This document shows, piece after piece, positions 4,366 to 64,000 of a stretch of 64,000 bases of DNA (position 1 is the first letter of the stretch; every line of letters starts with the position of its first letter). The notes under the pieces are model-generated. The model saw only the letters and a program-made list of their open reading frames with translations. It was not told the DNA's origin and searched no databases. The stretch lies in sequence record PZ386953.1. One strand, written 5' to 3'. The stretch comes from a phage. Made by a program: the position numbers and the translations under genes.

Positions 4366-7300
4366 ATGCTTCCAATCCCTTTGCTAAAACTTGGTCGTCA
4401 TTTCCTCGATAAGAGGGGTGGAATTAAGGAACTTGCTGTTCTGTCATACCCAATAGACAACAGTGATGGTACAAGCAATACAGTATCCTATGTAAATAGC
4501 TTAGCTATACTTTTTGATGATGGTCAGCTTAATATTACTGGTTATAATAGGTTCGGAGAGTGTCGGACTGGAGATCTTGATACAATAAACTATCCTAATG
4601 AGGCAGCTTGGAACGTAGACCATGTTTGGAGAGCTGACCGTGCATTTGTAATCCGCACATTCGATAATAAATTTTTCTATATTGGTTGCACAGCTGGTCT
4701 TATCGGATCGGAGGCAGCAGGTGGAAACGATGTTTGTGTCAGAGAGTGGACACCTTTGCCGGAACAGATCGTAACAGGGTTGCATTTGGACACCCATCCT
4801 GAGAGACTTGTTGAAGTAATGGGTGGCGTAAACAATACAGTGTGGGTAATTGCTGCACCAGAGGCTGATGGTATGCTTCACCTGTACGGCTCTGGCAATA
4901 ATACTTACGGCTCTCTTCATGTTGACAAAAATCAACACGCTACTCCAGTTAAGATTGGTGAAACATCTGAAAGTCCAGAGACAGGTCCTTGGAAAAACCC
5001 AAGAATTAATTGTGAAGTTCATGACAACTCGGTTATTTTTGGTGGTCCTAACGGATTCTGGATTGCAGGTTACGATTTCTTAAGAAATAACAGCAAAAAC
5101 ACACTAATTTATCCAGCCGAGCATGCGACTCTTGACCAGTTTAAAGGCATCTCGGTGGGCGAGACATGGAAAGGGTTTATGTGTGGACCTAATGGTGCAA
5201 TTATAGCCACAGAAAGGATGCACAAACCTGATGACCAACAGCTTGTTAATGTGTTTTATGGTCAGGATGTTTGGGGTGACGACACGTGGAGAAGCCTTAA
5301 CATCACCTATACCCATGAAGTAATTATGGCTCGCGGGTACGGGACTAGTGGAATTTTCTTCAATAATGGTACAAAACAGTACCGTGGTTTCTCCAGAAAC
5401 CTGTGTAACGATATTGGTGCTCAATCTGCTAATAATAATCCTAGGGCCAATTTTATTCATTACAGAGCGCTGGCAACAGCTAAGTTTGTTGAACAGACAG
5501 AGCCAGTAAGCTGGACAGAAAGCGTTTATTTTCAAGGGATCCACAGGGAAGGTTTCTTAGGCACATTCTGTGTGGTAAATGGAAAGCTTTGGTGGTCAGG
5601 TATCCCAAGGGGCAGTTTTTCAGGCTCTAATAACCTGTTCGGCGGCAGACTTAACAGCCAAGGGTTCACAGAGATTCCTGAGAATTGGTATAAAAATGTT
5701 CCGGTAGATAGCTGGAGTATCGAAGACATCTTTGATGTCAATGGTGTAAGCAGTGTTAGCAATATATACATTGGCGACACTGTCAAAATGAAGTTGAAAC
5801 CTCAACCGGAGGGTGCTACGTTCATTATTGACAAGATTGAGCTCGTGAACGCTGCAGGTACTGTTGTTACAGATGCAAACTATCAGTTCTCTACTAGCTG
5901 GAACCATGGCGGTGCTAACGAGGTTGTGGTTACCCAGCATAACCGTAACATCAACAGACGCGGTCTGTATTCTGTCAAGATCACCTATCATGATAAACAT
6001 GGCGCTGGAAGAACCCACACCACACGAAACTTAAACTGGAACATTGTAGTTCCTGCATATCCGTCAGACGGCAAATGGCACACTGTTGGCAGGAAGAAAC
6101 AGTTCCATGTAAACGATACTGTATACTTTGGGCTTAACGGCTCTCAGCCTGCTCCAGAAAGCGATACAGCATATATGGTTAGGCTTCACAGGCAAGATGC
6201 CGGATCTACCACGTATGATGTGACCCAGGAGATCTACGACCAGAGACGCAGTATCTATGACAATCTTGTGAAAACACAAGCCTTGTGGGAGTTCAACCCT
6301 AACGGCAAAGGCGGGAAGATGCTGCAGGTTAACGAGCAGAACGGAACATCGTTAACAGTGCACGAGCATGCTGATCCATGGCCTGATCCTGGTAAGCCTA
6401 ACCCAGGTGCTCGCACACTGAAAGTTGTTAGCCACAACGCAGGGTATTTCGGGATACGTTGGGAAGCTACAGTAAAATATGTTGATGGAACAACAAACAA
6501 TATAGGTATTACTCTGGGTGGTACCAGTGAAGATAGTTCTCTGAAAATTGCCTACACCCCTAGAGGCATCTCTATTGACAATATGGATATAGTTCGTAAC
6601 GGTTACGGTGATGTAAACATCAAAGTTACCCTCGGTGAACATCTTGGTGGAGAAAGGATCATCATGTATGCCTTTGACCATGATCCTCGCACCAATGGAA
6701 CCTATGCAAATCAGGCGTGGAGTTACCTGATAAATGCACCTGAGCCAAATACTAAAGAGTTTTATTATGGTATGAAGCGCGATGTGTGCAAGAAAACAGG
6801 AACACATGACTGGATCGCTATCTGCGTTAAAGATGAGCGGACAGCTTGGGACGAGCCTGTTAACAGATGGTTCATAGGAATCCCAACCAGAAGTGATAAA
6901 TATGTCACAGAATATATTGTGTGCATGGGCGGCACCAACCTGAACCTGTGTTGGAACGAAGATGCAAACAAATATTCCGATTATGACTATATGAGAGATA
7001 TCTCTTGTAATCAGTGGTTTAACCAGACTACAGGTTACCCTCCGCGTCAGGCGAGAGTAAACCCTGCAATCTTCACAGATACGCAGGTTTTCTTGACAAA
7101 ACAGGCCAACGAGGTTCAGACCTTCAAGAACAAATACGACCCTAACAAGTGGTTTTATAACTGTTATGGCGCATTTTTCTGGGGTCCGGGGGAACTACCT
7201 AACGGGGGATCTTGCTTCGAGGCTGCAACCTATGGCAGCGACTATATTATGGGGCAAGTCAAGAAATACAAAATGATCCCTGGTCCTGAAACCCTGGGTA

Positions 7301-58946: not shown

Positions 58947-59198
58947 TTAACGTTCTACAAAAATACCGTTCAGTTCAATAACCAGGAATTTCTGGTCTTC
59001 ACTATCGTCTCGTGCCAGCACCTCACAGACGTATCGGTCATCCACATCATCATCGCAGTCAAATACAAGACTGAGGACTTTATCATGGTAAACCTTCGCC
59101 ACTACCGCCTCGTAAGTATTGCCGATTGTGAATCCAAGATAATCTCCGATGCATTTGACAACAACATGGTCTCCAGCATTTAAGTCAATCTTCGTCAT
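58947..59198 (-). CDS. small acidic protein
   Basis: Start set to internal Met (MTKIDL) preceded by AAGGAG SD; track ORF extends to 59264. Confidence 0.45.
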   Translation of the reverse strand: MTKIDLNAGDHVVVKCIGDYLGFTIGNTYEAVVAKVYHDKVLSLVFDCDDDVDDRYVCEVLARDDSEDQKFLVIELNGIFVER

Positions 59199-59353
59199 TA
59201 CTGCGCTCCTTGGGTAATAATACTGTATGTAAAACTTTAACCAGAGATGTGAATAACGCCCCAAAACACACCGATAGCGCTAAAACAGACAAGGCCATCA
59301 TTAAAGCTTCAGTAAAATCAGTCATTCCTCACCTCTTGTTAGTCACTATACTA

Positions 59354-59617
59354 TCATTTATCCTTGTCGTCAAGAACTTTTTTAAATCTTTCAGGGATAT
59401 CTCCCGTTCTTAGATAGTTCATGACCTCGCAAGGTTCCCACTTGAATTTCTTACAGAGCAGGGCGGCTGAGATTGTTTCATTGCGAAAAGAAAGGATATT
59501 AATATCCCACTCTGAGAACCCCAACTTCCGAAGGGTAGCTACAGAAATCCTCACCGCAACCCAGCAGCAAAAACATGCAACAAACGCCACTGCTACAACC
59601 CACATCAGGATGTTCAT
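59354..59617 (-). CDS. small membrane protein
   Basis: N-terminal TM helix ILMWVVAVAFVACFCCWVAV. Confidence 0.45.
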   Translation of the reverse strand: MNILMWVVAVAFVACFCCWVAVRISVATLRKLGFSEWDINILSFRNETISAALLCKKFKWEPCEVMNYLRTGDIPERFKKVLDDKDK

Positions 59618-59706
59618 ATAAGCACCTTACTGAAATACAAGACACAGTGTTAAGGTTACTGACCAGCAAATAATTAACAGTGCCGTTGCAACCTTGGCAA
59701 GATTTA

Positions 59707-59994
59707 TCATAGTGCCTCTAAGATTTCATATCCTTCGGGTCGGAATACAAGCCACTCCGTGGCTCCGTTTGGTCGATACGCTTTATACAGAACAACCTGG
59801 TCTCGGCACATGCACATGGCTACATAGTTTTCATCCACACCTGCAGCCTGCATTGCATCTTCTTCTCCGGCAACTGCTTTGCTTACAACTTCCTTGGTAG
59901 GCAGGTGTGCGATCAGCTCGTCACCATCATTAATTCCAAAATGGCTGAGTTCGCCGTTGGTATCTTTAATCTTAATCTTAACCAGATCTTTCAT
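59707..59994 (-). CDS. small acidic protein (MK.K family)
   Basis: 95 aa; N-terminus MKDLVKIKIKD, acidic, ends YEILEAL. Confidence 0.5.
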   Translation of the reverse strand: MKDLVKIKIKDTNGELSHFGINDGDELIAHLPTKEVVSKAVAGEEDAMQAAGVDENYVAMCMCRDQVVLYKAYRPNGATEWLVFRPEGYEILEAL

Positions 59995-60323
59995 TAGTCT
60001 TCCCCCAGGTTCAAAGGTCCTAAGATTTCATATGCCAGATTAGAAGTTACAAGAGGGTCTTCTGCGTCTTTAGTATTATACCACCCGTGAATAACCAGAG
60101 TCCCACTTTGTTTCATGTCCAACTGGAACTCTTCTGCCGTTTCCTCATCCAGCTCCAAGATTTCCATAAGGTATTTGATGTTAGGGAGGTATGCAGCTGT
60201 TACAGTCCCCTCTACCAGACCTTCAGGCCAACCTACATCTGGATGACAAGTAGGAACCAGGTTGGTCAGCTTAATGGTGTACGCTTTTTCTGCACGAGCC
60301 TTCAGTAACGGGTCAATCTTCAT
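59994..60323 (-). CDS. small acidic protein (MK.K family)
   Basis: 109 aa; starts MKIDP; ATGA overlap. Confidence 0.5.
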   Translation of the reverse strand: MKIDPLLKARAEKAYTIKLTNLVPTCHPDVGWPEGLVEGTVTAAYLPNIKYLMEILELDEETAEEFQLDMKQSGTLVIHGWYNTKDAEDPLVTSNLAYEILGPLNLGED

Positions 60324-60673
60324 TATTCGTCCTCCTCTTCGGTACCTGCTTCCAGTAATAAGTTAAGAATATCTTCTGCACAAGGTTCATAGAACTCTTG
60401 GCCTTCATTATCGATGATTTTGTAGTCATCTCCACGAATAATCAGGGGATCACTCTCAAAATTATCGAGACCTTTAACAACGACAACACGATCGATTGCC
60501 ATCATTGTAAGAACTTTATCGACATCTTCCTCTGCTACACCATACTGCAGCAGAATGTCTTTGGTAGGAGGAACAGCATCCACCACAACGCCGTTACCAA
60601 AACCTTCTGGAAGTTTAGCTAAAATATCTTCCGGAACCACATTCACATCAAAACCGGTAATTTCTACTTTCAT
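60323..60673 (-). CDS. small acidic protein (MK.K family)
   Basis: 116 aa; starts MKVEITGFDV; very acidic C-terminus. Confidence 0.5.
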   Translation of the reverse strand: MKVEITGFDVNVVPEDILAKLPEGFGNGVVVDAVPPTKDILLQYGVAEEDVDKVLTMMAIDRVVVVKGLDNFESDPLIIRGDDYKIIDNEGQEFYEPCAEDILNLLLEAGTEEEDE

Positions 60674-60934
60674 TTACAGCACCTCTTCGTCAACTACTTC
60701 ATAAAAATGGCCTGGGATTGCAATAGCGTTCTCACCTTCACCTACAAACACAGTTCCGTCAAGAATCAACATCATAAGAATTTCTGTAATATCCTCTTCC
60801 GGAACGTTGCCAAAACCTTTAATCAGCTCGTAGGTTGGAATATTTACCTCTAAGATGTCACCATCTTTAGAACGGAAATCAACACCGTCCTGAATCTCTG
60901 CCGTTTCAAGGTTTTTCAATTTAATCTTCATCAA
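60674..60934 (-). CDS. small acidic protein (MK.K family)
   Basis: 86 aa; starts MMKIKLKNLE; ends YEVVDEEVL. Confidence 0.5.
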   Translation of the reverse strand: MMKIKLKNLETAEIQDGVDFRSKDGDILEVNIPTYELIKGFGNVPEEDITEILMMLILDGTVFVGEGENAIAIPGHFYEVVDEEVL

Positions 60935-61010
60935 TCGGTCCCCTGTCTTGTTAAGATGAAGGTATTATTTCACACAGGGTTGGCGTTGTCAACACCTGTG
61001 TGCAAGAAAA

Positions 61011-61406
61011 TTACTGAAACAGTGCGGATAAATTACCTTCTGGTGGGAACTTATCTGCCAAAAACGGTGTTAGCACAGTAGCCTTCTGAAGATCTGGGGT
61101 CCACTCGTTGTTCAGAACATCCCAGTAGTACGCAATGTTGCTGTGTGGGTGCCGCATTACGAACTTTTTCCCTTCGTAGTCATCTGAAACCTCTACAGAA
61201 GAAATAACAACAGAATCTTCAAGGGTTTCTTCATAGAAAGATCCACCTTCAAATTTCCAACGAGATGCAAGAGCCCCTGCCTTGAACGCTGCAGATAACG
61301 GACTGTCGGCAAGAACATACATTTCTTGCACTCTGTCGCTGCGATCTTTGCTTCTTACGTTGTATACAGTATCTGAGCTATACTCAACACGGTATAGGCT
61401 TACCAT
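61011..61406 (-). CDS. family B paralog (131 aa)
   Basis: HPHSNIAYYWDVLNNEWTP aligns with HPDSRVKHYWNARTKTWTP of gene 63218-63616. Confidence 0.5.
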   Translation of the reverse strand: MVSLYRVEYSSDTVYNVRSKDRSDRVQEMYVLADSPLSAAFKAGALASRWKFEGGSFYEETLEDSVVISSVEVSDDYEGKKFVMRHPHSNIAYYWDVLNNEWTPDLQKATVLTPFLADKFPPEGNLSALFQ

Positions 61407-61765
61407 TACCGCACCTCCTCAATAACTTCCACATCTGAACCTACCACAAATGCAAAAGGACAGGTTTCATGAAAGATATCCGGATCGCCGCCAAGCTTGC
61501 TAACAATTTCTCCACCACTAATAAACACAAGCTCACCGATATTCATCAGATTGCTGAAATAGTACCCATAATGATTAAAGAATGCAGCAGGGTCAGGTAG
61601 ACTAGTAGCCTCAAGCACTACATCGGTTGAGGTTACTTTCTTATCATAACCTCTCGCCTTTTGAGATGCAAGATCTGCAGAATCCTCAGGCGACCGGAGA
61701 TGCACAGGAATTGTTTCACCAATAAAGCGTACTTTCATATTATCACCCAACAACCATAGCTTCAA
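61406..61765 (-). CDS. family A paralog (119 aa)
   Basis: C-terminal PFAFVVGSDVEVIEE aligns with YAFGVGSDADIVEL (63629-63883) and the partial gene at the window edge. Confidence 0.5.
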   Translation of the reverse strand: MKLWLLGDNMKVRFIGETIPVHLRSPEDSADLASQKARGYDKKVTSTDVVLEATSLPDPAAFFNHYGYYFSNLMNIGELVFISGGEIVSKLGGDPDIFHETCPFAFVVGSDVEVIEEVR

Positions 61766-62006
61766 AAGGAGTCATGAACGAATAAACGGCATCATCATCT
61801 GCTTCAGGGAATGCTCCCAAAGACTTCATATCTGAGCCCTTGACAAATACAAGGTTTTGATCAAAGGCTTCTTGGGGGTCAATCCGATACATATTTCGTA
61901 AAATATCGCTTACCTCCTCATCAAGAGGTGAGTATGCTGTGCACGTTTTTCCGATCAAGCTTTGAGAATCAGGGTATCCACCTGAAGTTTTAAAATAAAC
62001 AATCAT
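61743..62006 (-). CDS. hypothetical protein
   Basis: 87-aa ORF. Confidence 0.45.
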   Translation of the reverse strand: MIVYFKTSGGYPDSQSLIGKTCTAYSPLDEEVSDILRNMYRIDPQEAFDQNLVFVKGSDMKSLGAFPEADDDAVYSFMTPFEAMVVG

Positions 62007-62097
62007 ATAGTATCACCTCTGGTAAGAGATTGGGACTCCTTTCCCACAAATAATTACAAATCTTCCTTAGCGAGGAAGTATGCTAATCCAAGCAGGA

Positions 62098-62367
62098 TTA
62101 TTCCTCTACAATCTCATACACATCAGGAGTTACAATCAACTCTTCTCCGTTACCCGGTGCAACAAACACCACCAAACCTTCAGGTGTGTGCTTTTTAGCC
62201 ATCTCGATAACATCTTCTCGCAGAGCTGGCTCCATCAGATCAAAACCTTCACCTAGGGCATCACGAACCACCTTCATATAGTCCACTGGTTGTGCTTCAA
62301 CAATCATGCCTTCAACCAGTCCACAATTTTTGTCTGCCAGCTCAGTTTGGAATAATTTAATTTTCAT
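62098..62367 (-). CDS. small acidic protein (MK.K family)
   Basis: 89 aa; starts MKIKLFQTE; ends VYEIVEE; about 22 percent Asp+Glu. Confidence 0.5.
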   Translation of the reverse strand: MKIKLFQTELADKNCGLVEGMIVEAQPVDYMKVVRDALGEGFDLMEPALREDVIEMAKKHTPEGLVVFVAPGNGEELIVTPDVYEIVEE

Positions 62368-62504
62368 TTAGAGGTCTCCTCAATTATTTGATATTAATAG
62401 CCGTAACCTAACACATTAACTACAACTGCGATTGCAAACATAATTTCAAAGCATGCAATCTCTACATTTGGGACTAATTTCTTAATCACACCCATTGTAG
62501 CACC

Positions 62505-62825
62505 TCATTCTCCAAAGTCAATCTTTACTTTGCCTTTCCCCTTACCTTTCTTTCCACCGCATTTAGCCAGCTGACGTGCTGCAACATCTACCATACGGTC
62601 AGTTGCCTCGTAAGCATCACTGCCTTTAGCCTTGGCAATAACTTCTTTTCCAGAATTGTCAAAAATGAACGCCATAACTTCCTGGTGATCATTTTCAACT
62701 TTTACACTCACACGTGCATAGTTAACAGAGGGATGTAAACGCTCCAGCTTGGACATTTTGCGGGAAATAAAAGATACCATACCTTCTGTGATTTCTACAT
62801 TGTTGCCAGTGATTTCAATTTGCAT
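62505..62825 (-). CDS. hpf: ribosome hibernation promoting factor / RaiA (YfiA) family homolog
   Basis: N-terminus MQIEITGNNVEITEG nearly identical to the start of enterobacterial HPF as I recall it; AARQLAK motif; about 106 aa with basic KKGKGKGK tail. Confidence 0.75.
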   Translation of the reverse strand: MQIEITGNNVEITEGMVSFISRKMSKLERLHPSVNYARVSVKVENDHQEVMAFIFDNSGKEVIAKAKGSDAYEATDRMVDVAARQLAKCGGKKGKGKGKVKIDFGE

Positions 62826-62909
62826 AACGTGTTCCTTTTAAGGAAGAGGGAATAACTATCTCTCTTTGAAAACAATGATACTAAATCTGAAGCGTTGTGT
62901 CAACAGTTT

Positions 62910-63200
62910 TTACAGCTTGTTGTCGATAGTTTTTAAAATATCCACAGCAAGATCTGCCATTTTTCGAACATACTCTGCAAACTCAACAGGATCCTTGATC
63001 AAAGAATTCACAGGGTCGTACCCTAGAGCGTTTAAAATGGCTGCAGCATCTACAACCTTCTCATCATTTGCGAAGATCTCTCCGTCAAACTTGTAGGTCC
63101 ATTTTGAGTCAACCTTAGCAGAGCAGGGTTTGTCCATGCTTGTTACACCATCGTCTTTAAACTCTCCTGCGTTATCAATATTTAGAATTAAATCCATCAT
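62910..63200 (-). CDS. hypothetical protein
   Basis: 96-aa ORF. Confidence 0.45.
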   Translation of the reverse strand: MMDLILNIDNAGEFKDDGVTSMDKPCSAKVDSKWTYKFDGEIFANDEKVVDAAAILNALGYDPVNSLIKDPVEFAEYVRKMADLAVDILKTIDNKL

Positions 63201-63217
63201 GGTGACACCTCACTGTT

Positions 63218-63616
63218 TCAGTTTAGCTTTTCTTCAACAACCCCATAACTTGGGGCAGAGTCAAGAGCTTTCTGGTTTAAAAGTGGCGTAGCAGAATCTG
63301 CAAACGGTGTCCAAGTTTTTGTTCTGGCATTCCAGTAATGCTTCACTCTGGAATCTGGATGCACTATAACAAAAACTTTTTCACTTGTCAACACATTAAT
63401 TTCTTCTACACCCTTGCTGATAATTTCTCCGTCATAGCCCCCAGTCTGGTATCCTTCGTACCAGGTTCTTGCATAGGCATAGCCAGCCTGCCAGCATGCA
63501 GCCTCCTCCGAGGTGGAGACTACGTAGAAGTCTTTCTCAAATTCTGGAATACGCCCTTGCTTTACGCTCCAAGCCCCGCGAATTTTCATTGTAACTTTAA
63601 ACAGTTTATTTTTCAC
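63218..63616 (-). CDS. family B paralog (132 aa)
   Basis: Paralogous to 61011-61406. Confidence 0.5.
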   Translation of the reverse strand: MKNKLFKVTMKIRGAWSVKQGRIPEFEKDFYVVSTSEEAACWQAGYAYARTWYEGYQTGGYDGEIISKGVEEINVLTSEKVFVIVHPDSRVKHYWNARTKTWTPFADSATPLLNQKALDSAPSYGVVEEKLN

Positions 63617-63628
63617 AACGGTTACCCA

Positions 63629-63883
63629 TCACAGCTCTACAATATCTGCATCTGACCCTACCCCAAAGGCATAGTAGGACTCTTCCCCGAAATAATATTC
63701 AGGTGCACCAGCGGTGATCAGGTCTGATCCCAAGATAAACACCACGTTGTGGCCTACATAACTGTGATGTTGCCGCACAGGATCATCCCACGGCAACCCT
63801 TCAAAGTATACCGCAGGAACGACCTTTCCATTCAGGAAGGATTGTCCCAAGTAGACGTTAGAATCAAGAATTTTAACCTTCAT
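63629..63883 (-). CDS. family A paralog (84 aa)
   Basis: Paralogous to 61406-61765. Confidence 0.5.
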   Translation of the reverse strand: MKVKILDSNVYLGQSFLNGKVVPAVYFEGLPWDDPVRQHHSYVGHNVVFILGSDLITAGAPEYYFGEESYYAFGVGSDADIVEL

Positions 63884-64000
63884 GATCGTCCTCCACTACC
63901 TCTACATCCTCACCTAGGGCAAAGTTATAGGTCCACTGACTGTCAAAGCATTCCTGAGATGCACCAGCGGCAATAAGATCTGCTCCTTTTATTTTTAAAA
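63873..64000 (-). CDS. family A paralog, 3' end (partial; start beyond window edge)
   Basis: Frame open to window edge; C-terminus ADLIAAGASQECFDSQWTYNFALGEDVEVVEDDHEG aligns with SDLITAGAPEYYFGEESYYAFGVGSDADIVEL. Confidence 0.4.
   Translation of the reverse strand, partial: LKIKGADLIAAGASQECFDSQWTYNFALGEDVEVVEDDHEG

Follow-up and report, generated by a model that had tools for sequence, protein, structure and literature searches.

What an Escherichia coli phage gains from a relative of its host's ribosome hibernation factors, and whether the encoded protein still acts on ribosomes, is the question raised by a small gene in a 64,000-nucleotide stretch of phage DNA (PZ386953.1; hereafter the window), which comes from a Vequintavirus, that is, an rV5-like E. 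coli myovirus. An earlier note, made from the letters of the sequence, had described here a 106-aa minus-strand ORF as a homologue of the ribosome hibernation factors HPF and RaiA, and this ORF is present with exactly the sequence quoted. It starts with ATG, opens with MQIEITGNNVEITEG, closes with GGKKGKGKGKVKIDFGE and is preceded by a Shine-Dalgarno motif, AAGGA at 62833-62837, located 7 nt 5' of the start codon. The gene, referred to here as hpf, and the two parts of its product are placed as follows:

62505..62825, minus strand: hpf coding sequence, stop codon included; 106 aa, HPF/YfiA-family, orthologue of rV5 ORF144 (ABI79209).
62556..62825, minus strand: S30AE core, residues 1-90, supported by AlphaFold2, Foldseek and dN/dS.
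62508..62555, minus strand: Lys/Gly-rich tail, residues 91-106, GKKGKGKGKVKIDFGE; pLDDT below 50, predicted to be disordered.

The resemblance of the N-terminus to enterobacterial HPF, which had been pointed out in the earlier note, holds in the HMMER alignment with the E. coli HPF chains (PDB 2rql/4v8h/6h4n), in which 12 of the 15 residues are identical (MQIEITGNNVEITEG versus MQLNITGNNVEITEA in E. coli HPF). The AARQL motif (residues 82-86, LARQL in E. coli) and the Lys/Gly tail that it had listed are present as well.

Membership of the HPF/RaiA family is supported by profile, fold and context. The search against Ribosomal_S30AE (PF02482) that the earlier note had proposed gave 56.7 bits (E 4.2e-15; cutoff 23.7) over profile positions 1-83 of 88, the NCBIfam model of the HPF/YfiA family (TIGR00741) gave 56.8 bits against a cutoff of 40.9, and HMMER matched residues 1-90 to the E. 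coli HPF chains (PDB 2rql, 4v8h, 6h4n) with an E-value of about 4e-15. The only other Pfam match, to RRM_9, was sub-threshold (12.8 bits versus a cutoff of 25.9). The equivalog models were not reached, with 65.2 bits for HPF (NF007780; cutoff 125) and 22.8 bits for RaiA (NF007654; cutoff 158). Among the PHROGs families, it falls in phrog_12469 ('unknown function'; E 1e-69) and weakly matches the annotated S30AE family phrog_8990 (E 1e-7). The AlphaFold2 model, built on a shallow 5-sequence alignment, has a mean pLDDT of 84, with block values of 83-95 across residues 1-90, and predicts the elements of the S30AE domain, namely a strand at residues 2-8, a helix at 14-30, strands at 34-43, 48-56 and 61-68, and a helix at 71-90. 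When this model was compared with the PDB using Foldseek, the top 36 matches were all HPF, YfiA or pY, with target-normalised TM scores of up to 0.94, and the list was led by V. cholerae and E. coli short HPF (rmsd 1.1-1.6 A, identity 34-43%; TM 0.92 and rmsd 1.1 A for V. cholerae HPF 4hei). Neither of the outcomes that, according to the earlier note, would speak against the homology (no significant profile match, an unrelated fold) was thus obtained, and it is nearly certain that the ORF encodes a genuine homologue of bacterial HPF with the S30AE fold.

The closest cellular relative is the short HPF of E. coli (YhbH; 2rql, 6h4n; NF007780), with about 43-44% identity, which the phage protein resembles in its fold (rmsd 1.2-1.6 A), in its nearly identical N-terminus and in the equivalents of R83, K87, K91 and K26. 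Unlike E. coli HPF, it has a one-residue insertion in the loop between strand 3 and strand 4, and its 16-aa Lys/Gly tail takes the place of the six residues DKLKQH. E. coli YfiA/RaiA (protein Y; NF007654) combines the same fold with an extension past helix 2, and RefSeq calls the phage protein RaiA; the phage core is nearer to HPF than to YfiA (E 4e-15 versus 0.02), and its tail of 16 aa with a net charge of +4 is unlike the YfiA tail of 23 aa with a net charge of -4 and an acidic end. The C-terminal dimerisation domain of long HPF, a protein of some 180-190 aa, was not found in the 106-aa phage protein, which descends from a gammaproteobacterial short HPF.

A phage copy of a host translation-shutdown factor had been called unusual in the earlier note; in the sense of being new it is not, as the gene is annotated in rV5 and in most of the approximately 118 Vequintavirus records and was published in 2019 and 2020. 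The 2.5 kb surrounding it are 100% identical to Escherichia phages A51.2, slur16, slur12 and navn and 93-99% identical to about 120 rV5-like Vequintavirus myoviruses, and tblastn found phage HPF in 118 phage records, all of the rV5-like group, so that hpf is retained in 118 of the approximately 121 records that carry the region. The annotated genes of these records are 97-100% identical to the window gene, about 22 of the 118 records have a protein at least 99% identical to that of the window, and the labels are mostly 'sigma 54 modulation factor' (the historical hpf name), 'hpf', 'ribosome hibernation factor' or 'RaiA'. The annotation of ORF144 in the rV5 record (DQ832317) dates from 2006, and the record also gives the ORF a sigma70 promoter of its own, P144. 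This ORF (ABI79209), the HPF studied in PMC6375957, is the same gene, being 97% identical, in the same position and behind the same promoter, and the published rV5 peptides GSDAYEATDR, VENDHQEVMAFIFDNSGK and VKIDFGE are all found in the window protein, which differs from that of rV5 by GNNVEIT for GNVEIT, R22 for H22 and V34 for A34. Mizuno et al. 2019 (PMC6375957) reported HPF in rV5, FV3, JES-2013, typing phage 14, FFH2 and the Cronobacter jumbo phage GAP32, found the E. coli phage copies to group among gammaproteobacterial HPFs, and suggested that a viral HPF could act as a competitor of the host factor and block dimer formation. The gene was reported once more by Mathieu et al. 2020 (PMC6969025), in five rV5-like isolates from the gut. 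As such, the gene and its family assignment are already known, and the residue-level evidence of remodelling is what the present analysis adds.

Some records of the group carry other names for this gene or for its host. The hpf orthologue, a 105-aa S30AE protein, is misannotated as 'ATP-dependent protease La Type I' in OR062525, OR062530, MT884009.2 and MT884011.2. A second 'sigma 54 modulation factor', an 89-aa ORF two genes downstream (62098..62367, minus strand), was considered and rejected, having no Pfam match. This ORF bears the label in nom (nom_135), navn, SophiaRose, APCEc02 (APCEc02_082) and JLBYU08, and in APCEc02 the true hpf is named 'hypothetical' and the 89-aa neighbour bears the hpf name; it appears that the name slipped one gene over and was then propagated between records. 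In addition, 18 unannotated 'Campylobacter phage' records within MG065635-MG065690 (C12, C14, A12a, D1 and others), labelled as Campylobacter jejuni phages, are Vequintavirus by sequence and 93-100% identical to positions 61500-64000 of the window. The D1 record is marked UNVERIFIED and is placed in Vequintavirus by the NCBI taxonomy. The Campylobacter host label of these records is doubtful, possibly owing to a mixed lysate or to mislabelling.

The gene is not a recent arrival. Among ten Vequintavirus orthologues, dN/dS over core codons 1-90 is 0.01-0.15, with dS of up to 0.79, and two orthologue pairs have no non-synonymous core difference at all; the hpf core is under strong purifying selection. 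An orthologue in syntenic position (P0004; 103 aa, 64-66% identical) was found in a sister lineage of phage genomes of about 126-137 kb, recovered from Logan assemblies and one E. coli assembly. Between Vequintavirus and this lineage synonymous sites are saturated, and the early region is fully syntenic, its neighbouring genes being 29-87% identical at the protein level, with HPF in the middle of this range. One member, L002, is contig 58 of Logan ERR6997038 (125.8 kb, hpf at 5001-5312), and L003 and L004 are of the same lineage; none of the three is present in a collection of 50,697 phage records, NCBI files the HPF of the lineage under 'Escherichia coli', and together they are probably an undescribed genus-level relative of Vequintavirus. 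An exhaustive scan of 1.84 billion representatives returned nothing between the sister copy (64-66%) and enterobacterial HPF (about 44%). The word-indexed protein search gave the phage copies alone, the cellular relatives surfacing in the exhaustive search, and the third match of the latter, P0007 (1160 aa, 8 matched stretches), was set aside as spurious, as it is a PPC-domain repeat protein. Using blastn, no DNA match to hpf was found in 5,426 complete E. coli genomes, from which it follows that the gene is not a recent pick-up; together with the protein identity of only about 43% to host HPF, this rules out recent capture from the host. Thus, hpf is an old, fixed acquisition that predates the split between Vequintavirus and the sister lineage.

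Beyond this clade, few of the 50,697 phage records contain an HPF-like gene, the exceptions being one Xanthomonas jumbo phage and some short fragments that are probably host-derived. The other phage S30AE proteins, those of Cronobacter GAP32 (AFC21633), the Xanthomonas jumbo phage XaC1 and phrog_8990, are lineages separate from phrog_12469, and the existence of several phage PF02482 lineages indicates that HPF capture occurred more than once; the GAP32 HPF was not recovered by tblastn with either query. A search of the same 50,697 records for RMF gave no homologue at E-values of up to 0.1.

The gene sits within a long minus-strand run of small ORFs, such as the run of 88 mainly small ORFs described in the rV5 paper, and its place among small, early-like genes, as the earlier note had it, is supported by a sigma70 promoter in front of the gene. 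The upstream elements are:

62875..62903, minus strand: sigma70-type promoter, TTGACA-17 nt-TATCAT, with 11 of 12 consensus matches; equivalent to rV5 P144.
62826..62870, minus strand: 5' leader with a short hairpin and the Shine-Dalgarno motif, defined by sequence and alignment.

The -35 block AAACTGTTGACAC is unchanged in 8 Vequintavirus genomes and in the sister-lineage genome L002. Since the promoter scan as a whole returned 11 sites, no enrichment over the 10.3 expected from shuffles, the support for P144 comes from this conservation and from its near-consensus quality. Judged from the promoter alone, it is reasonable to expect that hpf would be transcribed early by the host RNA polymerase. 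The leader hairpin lies between the promoter and the Shine-Dalgarno motif (62845..62865, minus strand; 262-282 in L005 and 261-281 in L010) and has the form AAGAGGG-loop-CCCTCTT in most relatives, perfect in rV5 and Aya, the window copy having a mismatch and a 2-nt insertion. The folding statistics of the leader (-7 to -12.5 kcal/mol) are not convincing, with z-scores of -0.8 to -2.4, and make the hairpin a weak candidate at best. An Rfam scan of positions 59000-64000 gave no match at E-values of up to 0.1.

Further observations concern the surroundings of the gene. At the 3' end of hpf is a second promoter-like site (62494..62521, minus strand; TTGACT-16-TACAAT with extended TG), the -10 of which overlaps the ATG of a 33-aa putative membrane ORF (62394..62495); this ORF is absent in the sister-lineage genome L002, which has a gap of 84 nt after hpf. 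Two pairs of diverged paralogues flank hpf on the minus strand, one encoding proteins of 131 and 132 aa (61011..61406 and 63218..63616; 28% identical, E 2e-11) with the common motif HP-x-S-x4-YW-x6-WTP, the other proteins of 87 and 84 aa (61743..62006 and 63629..63883) that match weakly (E 3e-4). Neither pair has a Pfam match, and the presence of such pairs suggests that the early region has partly grown by local duplication. ARAGORN found no tRNA genes in the 64-kb window, and the tRNA genes, such phage genes being discussed in the rV5 paper, presumably lie outside it.

Whether the protein could still bind ribosomes was approached through its contact surface, using an alignment of the phage proteins with the 84 cellular relatives from the exhaustive search and with E. 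coli HPF and YfiA, the first 89 residues of HPF being verified by the HMMER alignment. The contacts described in recent cryo-EM work on gammaproteobacterial HPF/YfiA (bioRxiv 10.1101/2025.10.07.680626) comprise, in E. coli numbering, K80, R83, K87, K89 and K91 of helix 2, of which R83 contacts m4C1402; K26 and Q29; the m2G966 platform E51/T53/H-or-V62; the H55/E60 pair, which contacts uS9; and the aromatic residue 30, which contacts h24. In the phage protein, R84 (equivalent to R83), K88 (K87), K92 (K91), K26, R29, E61 (E60) and a hydrophobic I63 are retained; V81 (K80), G90 (K89), F53 (T53), F55 (H55), L30 (Y30), M51, S40 and A87 are replacements, and the R17 equivalent is also replaced (V17). 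Three of the five basic residues of helix 2 are thus kept, and the sister lineage has T and S at the positions equivalent to K80 and K89, where the window protein has V81 and G90. The m2G966 platform and the uS9 pair read M51, F53 and I63, and F55 with E61, in the window, which leaves the equivalents of hydrophobic position 62 and of E60 as the only ones kept. T. thermophilus HPF contacts the phosphates of h44 through Arg86 and Arg93, and h24 through stacking of Tyr31 (PMC6177447); anchored on the conserved D-x-Y motif, these residues map to V81, K88 and L30, respectively. The Thermus sequence used here matches all five residue identities given in PMC6177447.

Measured against the family as a whole, phage HPF has 21 of the 30 consensus residues, and E. 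coli YfiA has 20. It keeps six of nine family-conserved basic positions, a number so low in just 9 of 86 cellular sequences (lowest 10%), and the loss of both positions 17 and 81 is seen in 2 of these 86. The residues specific to the phage proteins (V17, the F53/F55 region, DHQEV, AKAKG and DAYEATD) are conserved in the clade and also in the sister lineage. Of the named ribosome contacts, about half are changed, and the alignment and the dN/dS values together indicate that the surface has been remodelled under purifying selection.

The tail, in turn, is the only freely varying part of phage HPF. It reads KSKGIDKRTAKWDY in the sister lineage, and the variants found in viable isolates include an end at 99 aa in Murica, a frameshifted 101-aa form in APCEc02 and the absence of 2 aa in YN3. 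Within the core, the window allele has GNNVEIT (106 aa), like E. coli HPF, whereas GNVEIT (105 aa) is found in most Vequintavirus copies, among them that of rV5, and in the sister lineage; the difference is a 3-nt indel in the loop between strand 1 and helix 1 (62799..62804, minus strand, codons 8-9). In some species, residue 8 (His8) contacts the ribosome. Gene conversion from the host was ruled out as the source of GNNVEIT, the codon usage being unlike that of the host gene.

These findings need to be read together with the one published test. Mizuno et al. expressed rV5 HPF from pBAD24 in E. coli NM522 to OD 1 and detected it in the crude extract; no peptides of it were found in 70S or 100S ribosomes, and the abundance of 100S was the same (PMC6375957), a lack of discernible 100S effect that sets it apart from E. 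coli HPF. The ribosomes came from late-exponential cells and were pelleted through a 500 mM NH4Cl cushion, and salt stripping and growth phase are the authors' own caveats for the negative result; HPF and YfiA were kept on ribosomes at 100 mM NH4Cl in structural work (bioRxiv 10.1101/2025.10.07.680626). In the literature, we found no later functional work on Vequintavirus hpf, no ribosome-binding test of phage HPF at low salt or in infection, and no transcriptome or deletion study of the gene.

Here we propose, with roughly even confidence for and against, that phage HPF most likely acts by docking on the ribosome, where it would occupy the 30S decoding channel weakly and in a salt-labile manner. 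Made early by the host RNA polymerase, the protein would dock in the tRNA/mRNA channel of vacant 30S or 70S ribosomes by means of the retained Arg84 (the equivalent of E. coli R83, the m4C1402 contact), Lys88, Lys92, Lys26 and Arg29. Because the equivalents of K80, K89, T53, H55 and Y30 are replaced, the remodelled interface would probably be weaker and salt-labile, for which the flexible Lys/Gly tail might partly compensate. The protein might thus briefly park and shield idle ribosomes or, alternatively, compete with host HPF, YfiA and RMF such that the ribosomes of a starved host can still be recruited, and its role would thus be a protective or competitive one rather than a shutdown of translation. 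Continued targeting of the 30S subunit is suggested by the survival of the most specific rRNA contacts in a fold family for which, to our knowledge, no function other than a ribosomal one has been described. Weak, salt-labile binding would also fit the negative result of PMC6375957 without loss of function, given the wash at 500 mM rather than 100 mM NH4Cl. The evidence against docking consists of that same negative result, the change in about half of the contacts, the low number of conserved basic positions, the 65 bits scored against an equivalog cutoff of 125, and the absence of a phage RMF.

The main rival, which we regard as unlikely but which draws on much of the same evidence, is that the S30AE (dsRBD-like) scaffold has been neofunctionalised and works off the ribosome, binding some other host or phage RNA or protein. 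Such a change would agree with the absent co-purification with ribosomes and the unaffected 100S (PMC6375957), and with the loss of two of the five helix-2 lysines described as 'strictly conserved' and of two of the three residues in the m2G966 platform. The phage-specific replacements are, moreover, under strong purifying selection and conserved into the sister lineage, and the clade is isolated, the next match after the sister lineage among the 1.84 billion representatives being at 44%. However, the contacts most specific for rRNA are kept (the equivalents of R83, with its contact to m4C1402, K87, K91 and K26), and we know of no member of this fold family with another function. The consensus count also argues against it, as YfiA, an undisputed ribosome binder, has one family-consensus residue fewer than the phage protein, and the negative binding assay used a salt concentration likely to strip such factors. 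A related and similarly doubtful reading is that of a repurposed, non-hibernation derivative, either a weak anti-hibernation competitor at the HPF/YfiA site or a protein with a non-ribosomal target, which would explain both the contacts replaced under selection and the lack of stable ribosome binding or of an effect on 100S.

That phage HPF instead serves host shutoff, inactivating ribosomes or driving 100S formation and so silencing host translation, as the earlier note had suggested, appears improbable. Cellular HPF and YfiA do block the tRNA and mRNA sites (PMC6177447; bioRxiv 10.1101/2025.10.07.680626), and the promoter ahead of the gene is of an early type, but the phage itself depends on these ribosomes, and a block of the HPF type would presumably affect its own mRNAs as much as those of the host. 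In the sole experiment, rV5 HPF was missing from salt-washed 70S and 100S, and with continuous pBAD expression and growth to OD 1 the 70S/100S profiles were unaltered (PMC6375957). In addition, RMF and HPF act together when 100S forms in E. coli, and no RMF homologue was found in the phage records; the equivalog cutoffs are missed, about half of the named contacts are lost, and the contact surface is weakened rather than strengthened. Finally, a functionless passenger, that is, a drifting fragment of a captured host gene, is effectively refuted by the selection on the core (dN/dS 0.01-0.15 at dS of up to 0.79), by its retention in practically every Vequintavirus record and, at saturated synonymous divergence, in a sister lineage, by the conserved promoter and Shine-Dalgarno motif, and by the lack of DNA similarity to the 5,426 E. 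coli genomes, hence of a recent pick-up, even though the extreme C-terminus tolerates frameshift and truncation in viable isolates and no phenotype is known.

Virus-encoded copies of host translation factors form a class that is recognised but little understood, and hpf is carried by E. coli phages that are common and easily handled, some of them part of the BASEL collection. To what was known of this gene, the present study adds that its ribosome-contact surface appears to have been remodelled under selection, and that the published negative result was obtained in conditions likely to strip such factors. Starved, non-growing hosts are probably common in the gut and in sewage, and if phage HPF does modulate hibernation, the gene would be relevant to the way in which lytic phages deal with such hosts.
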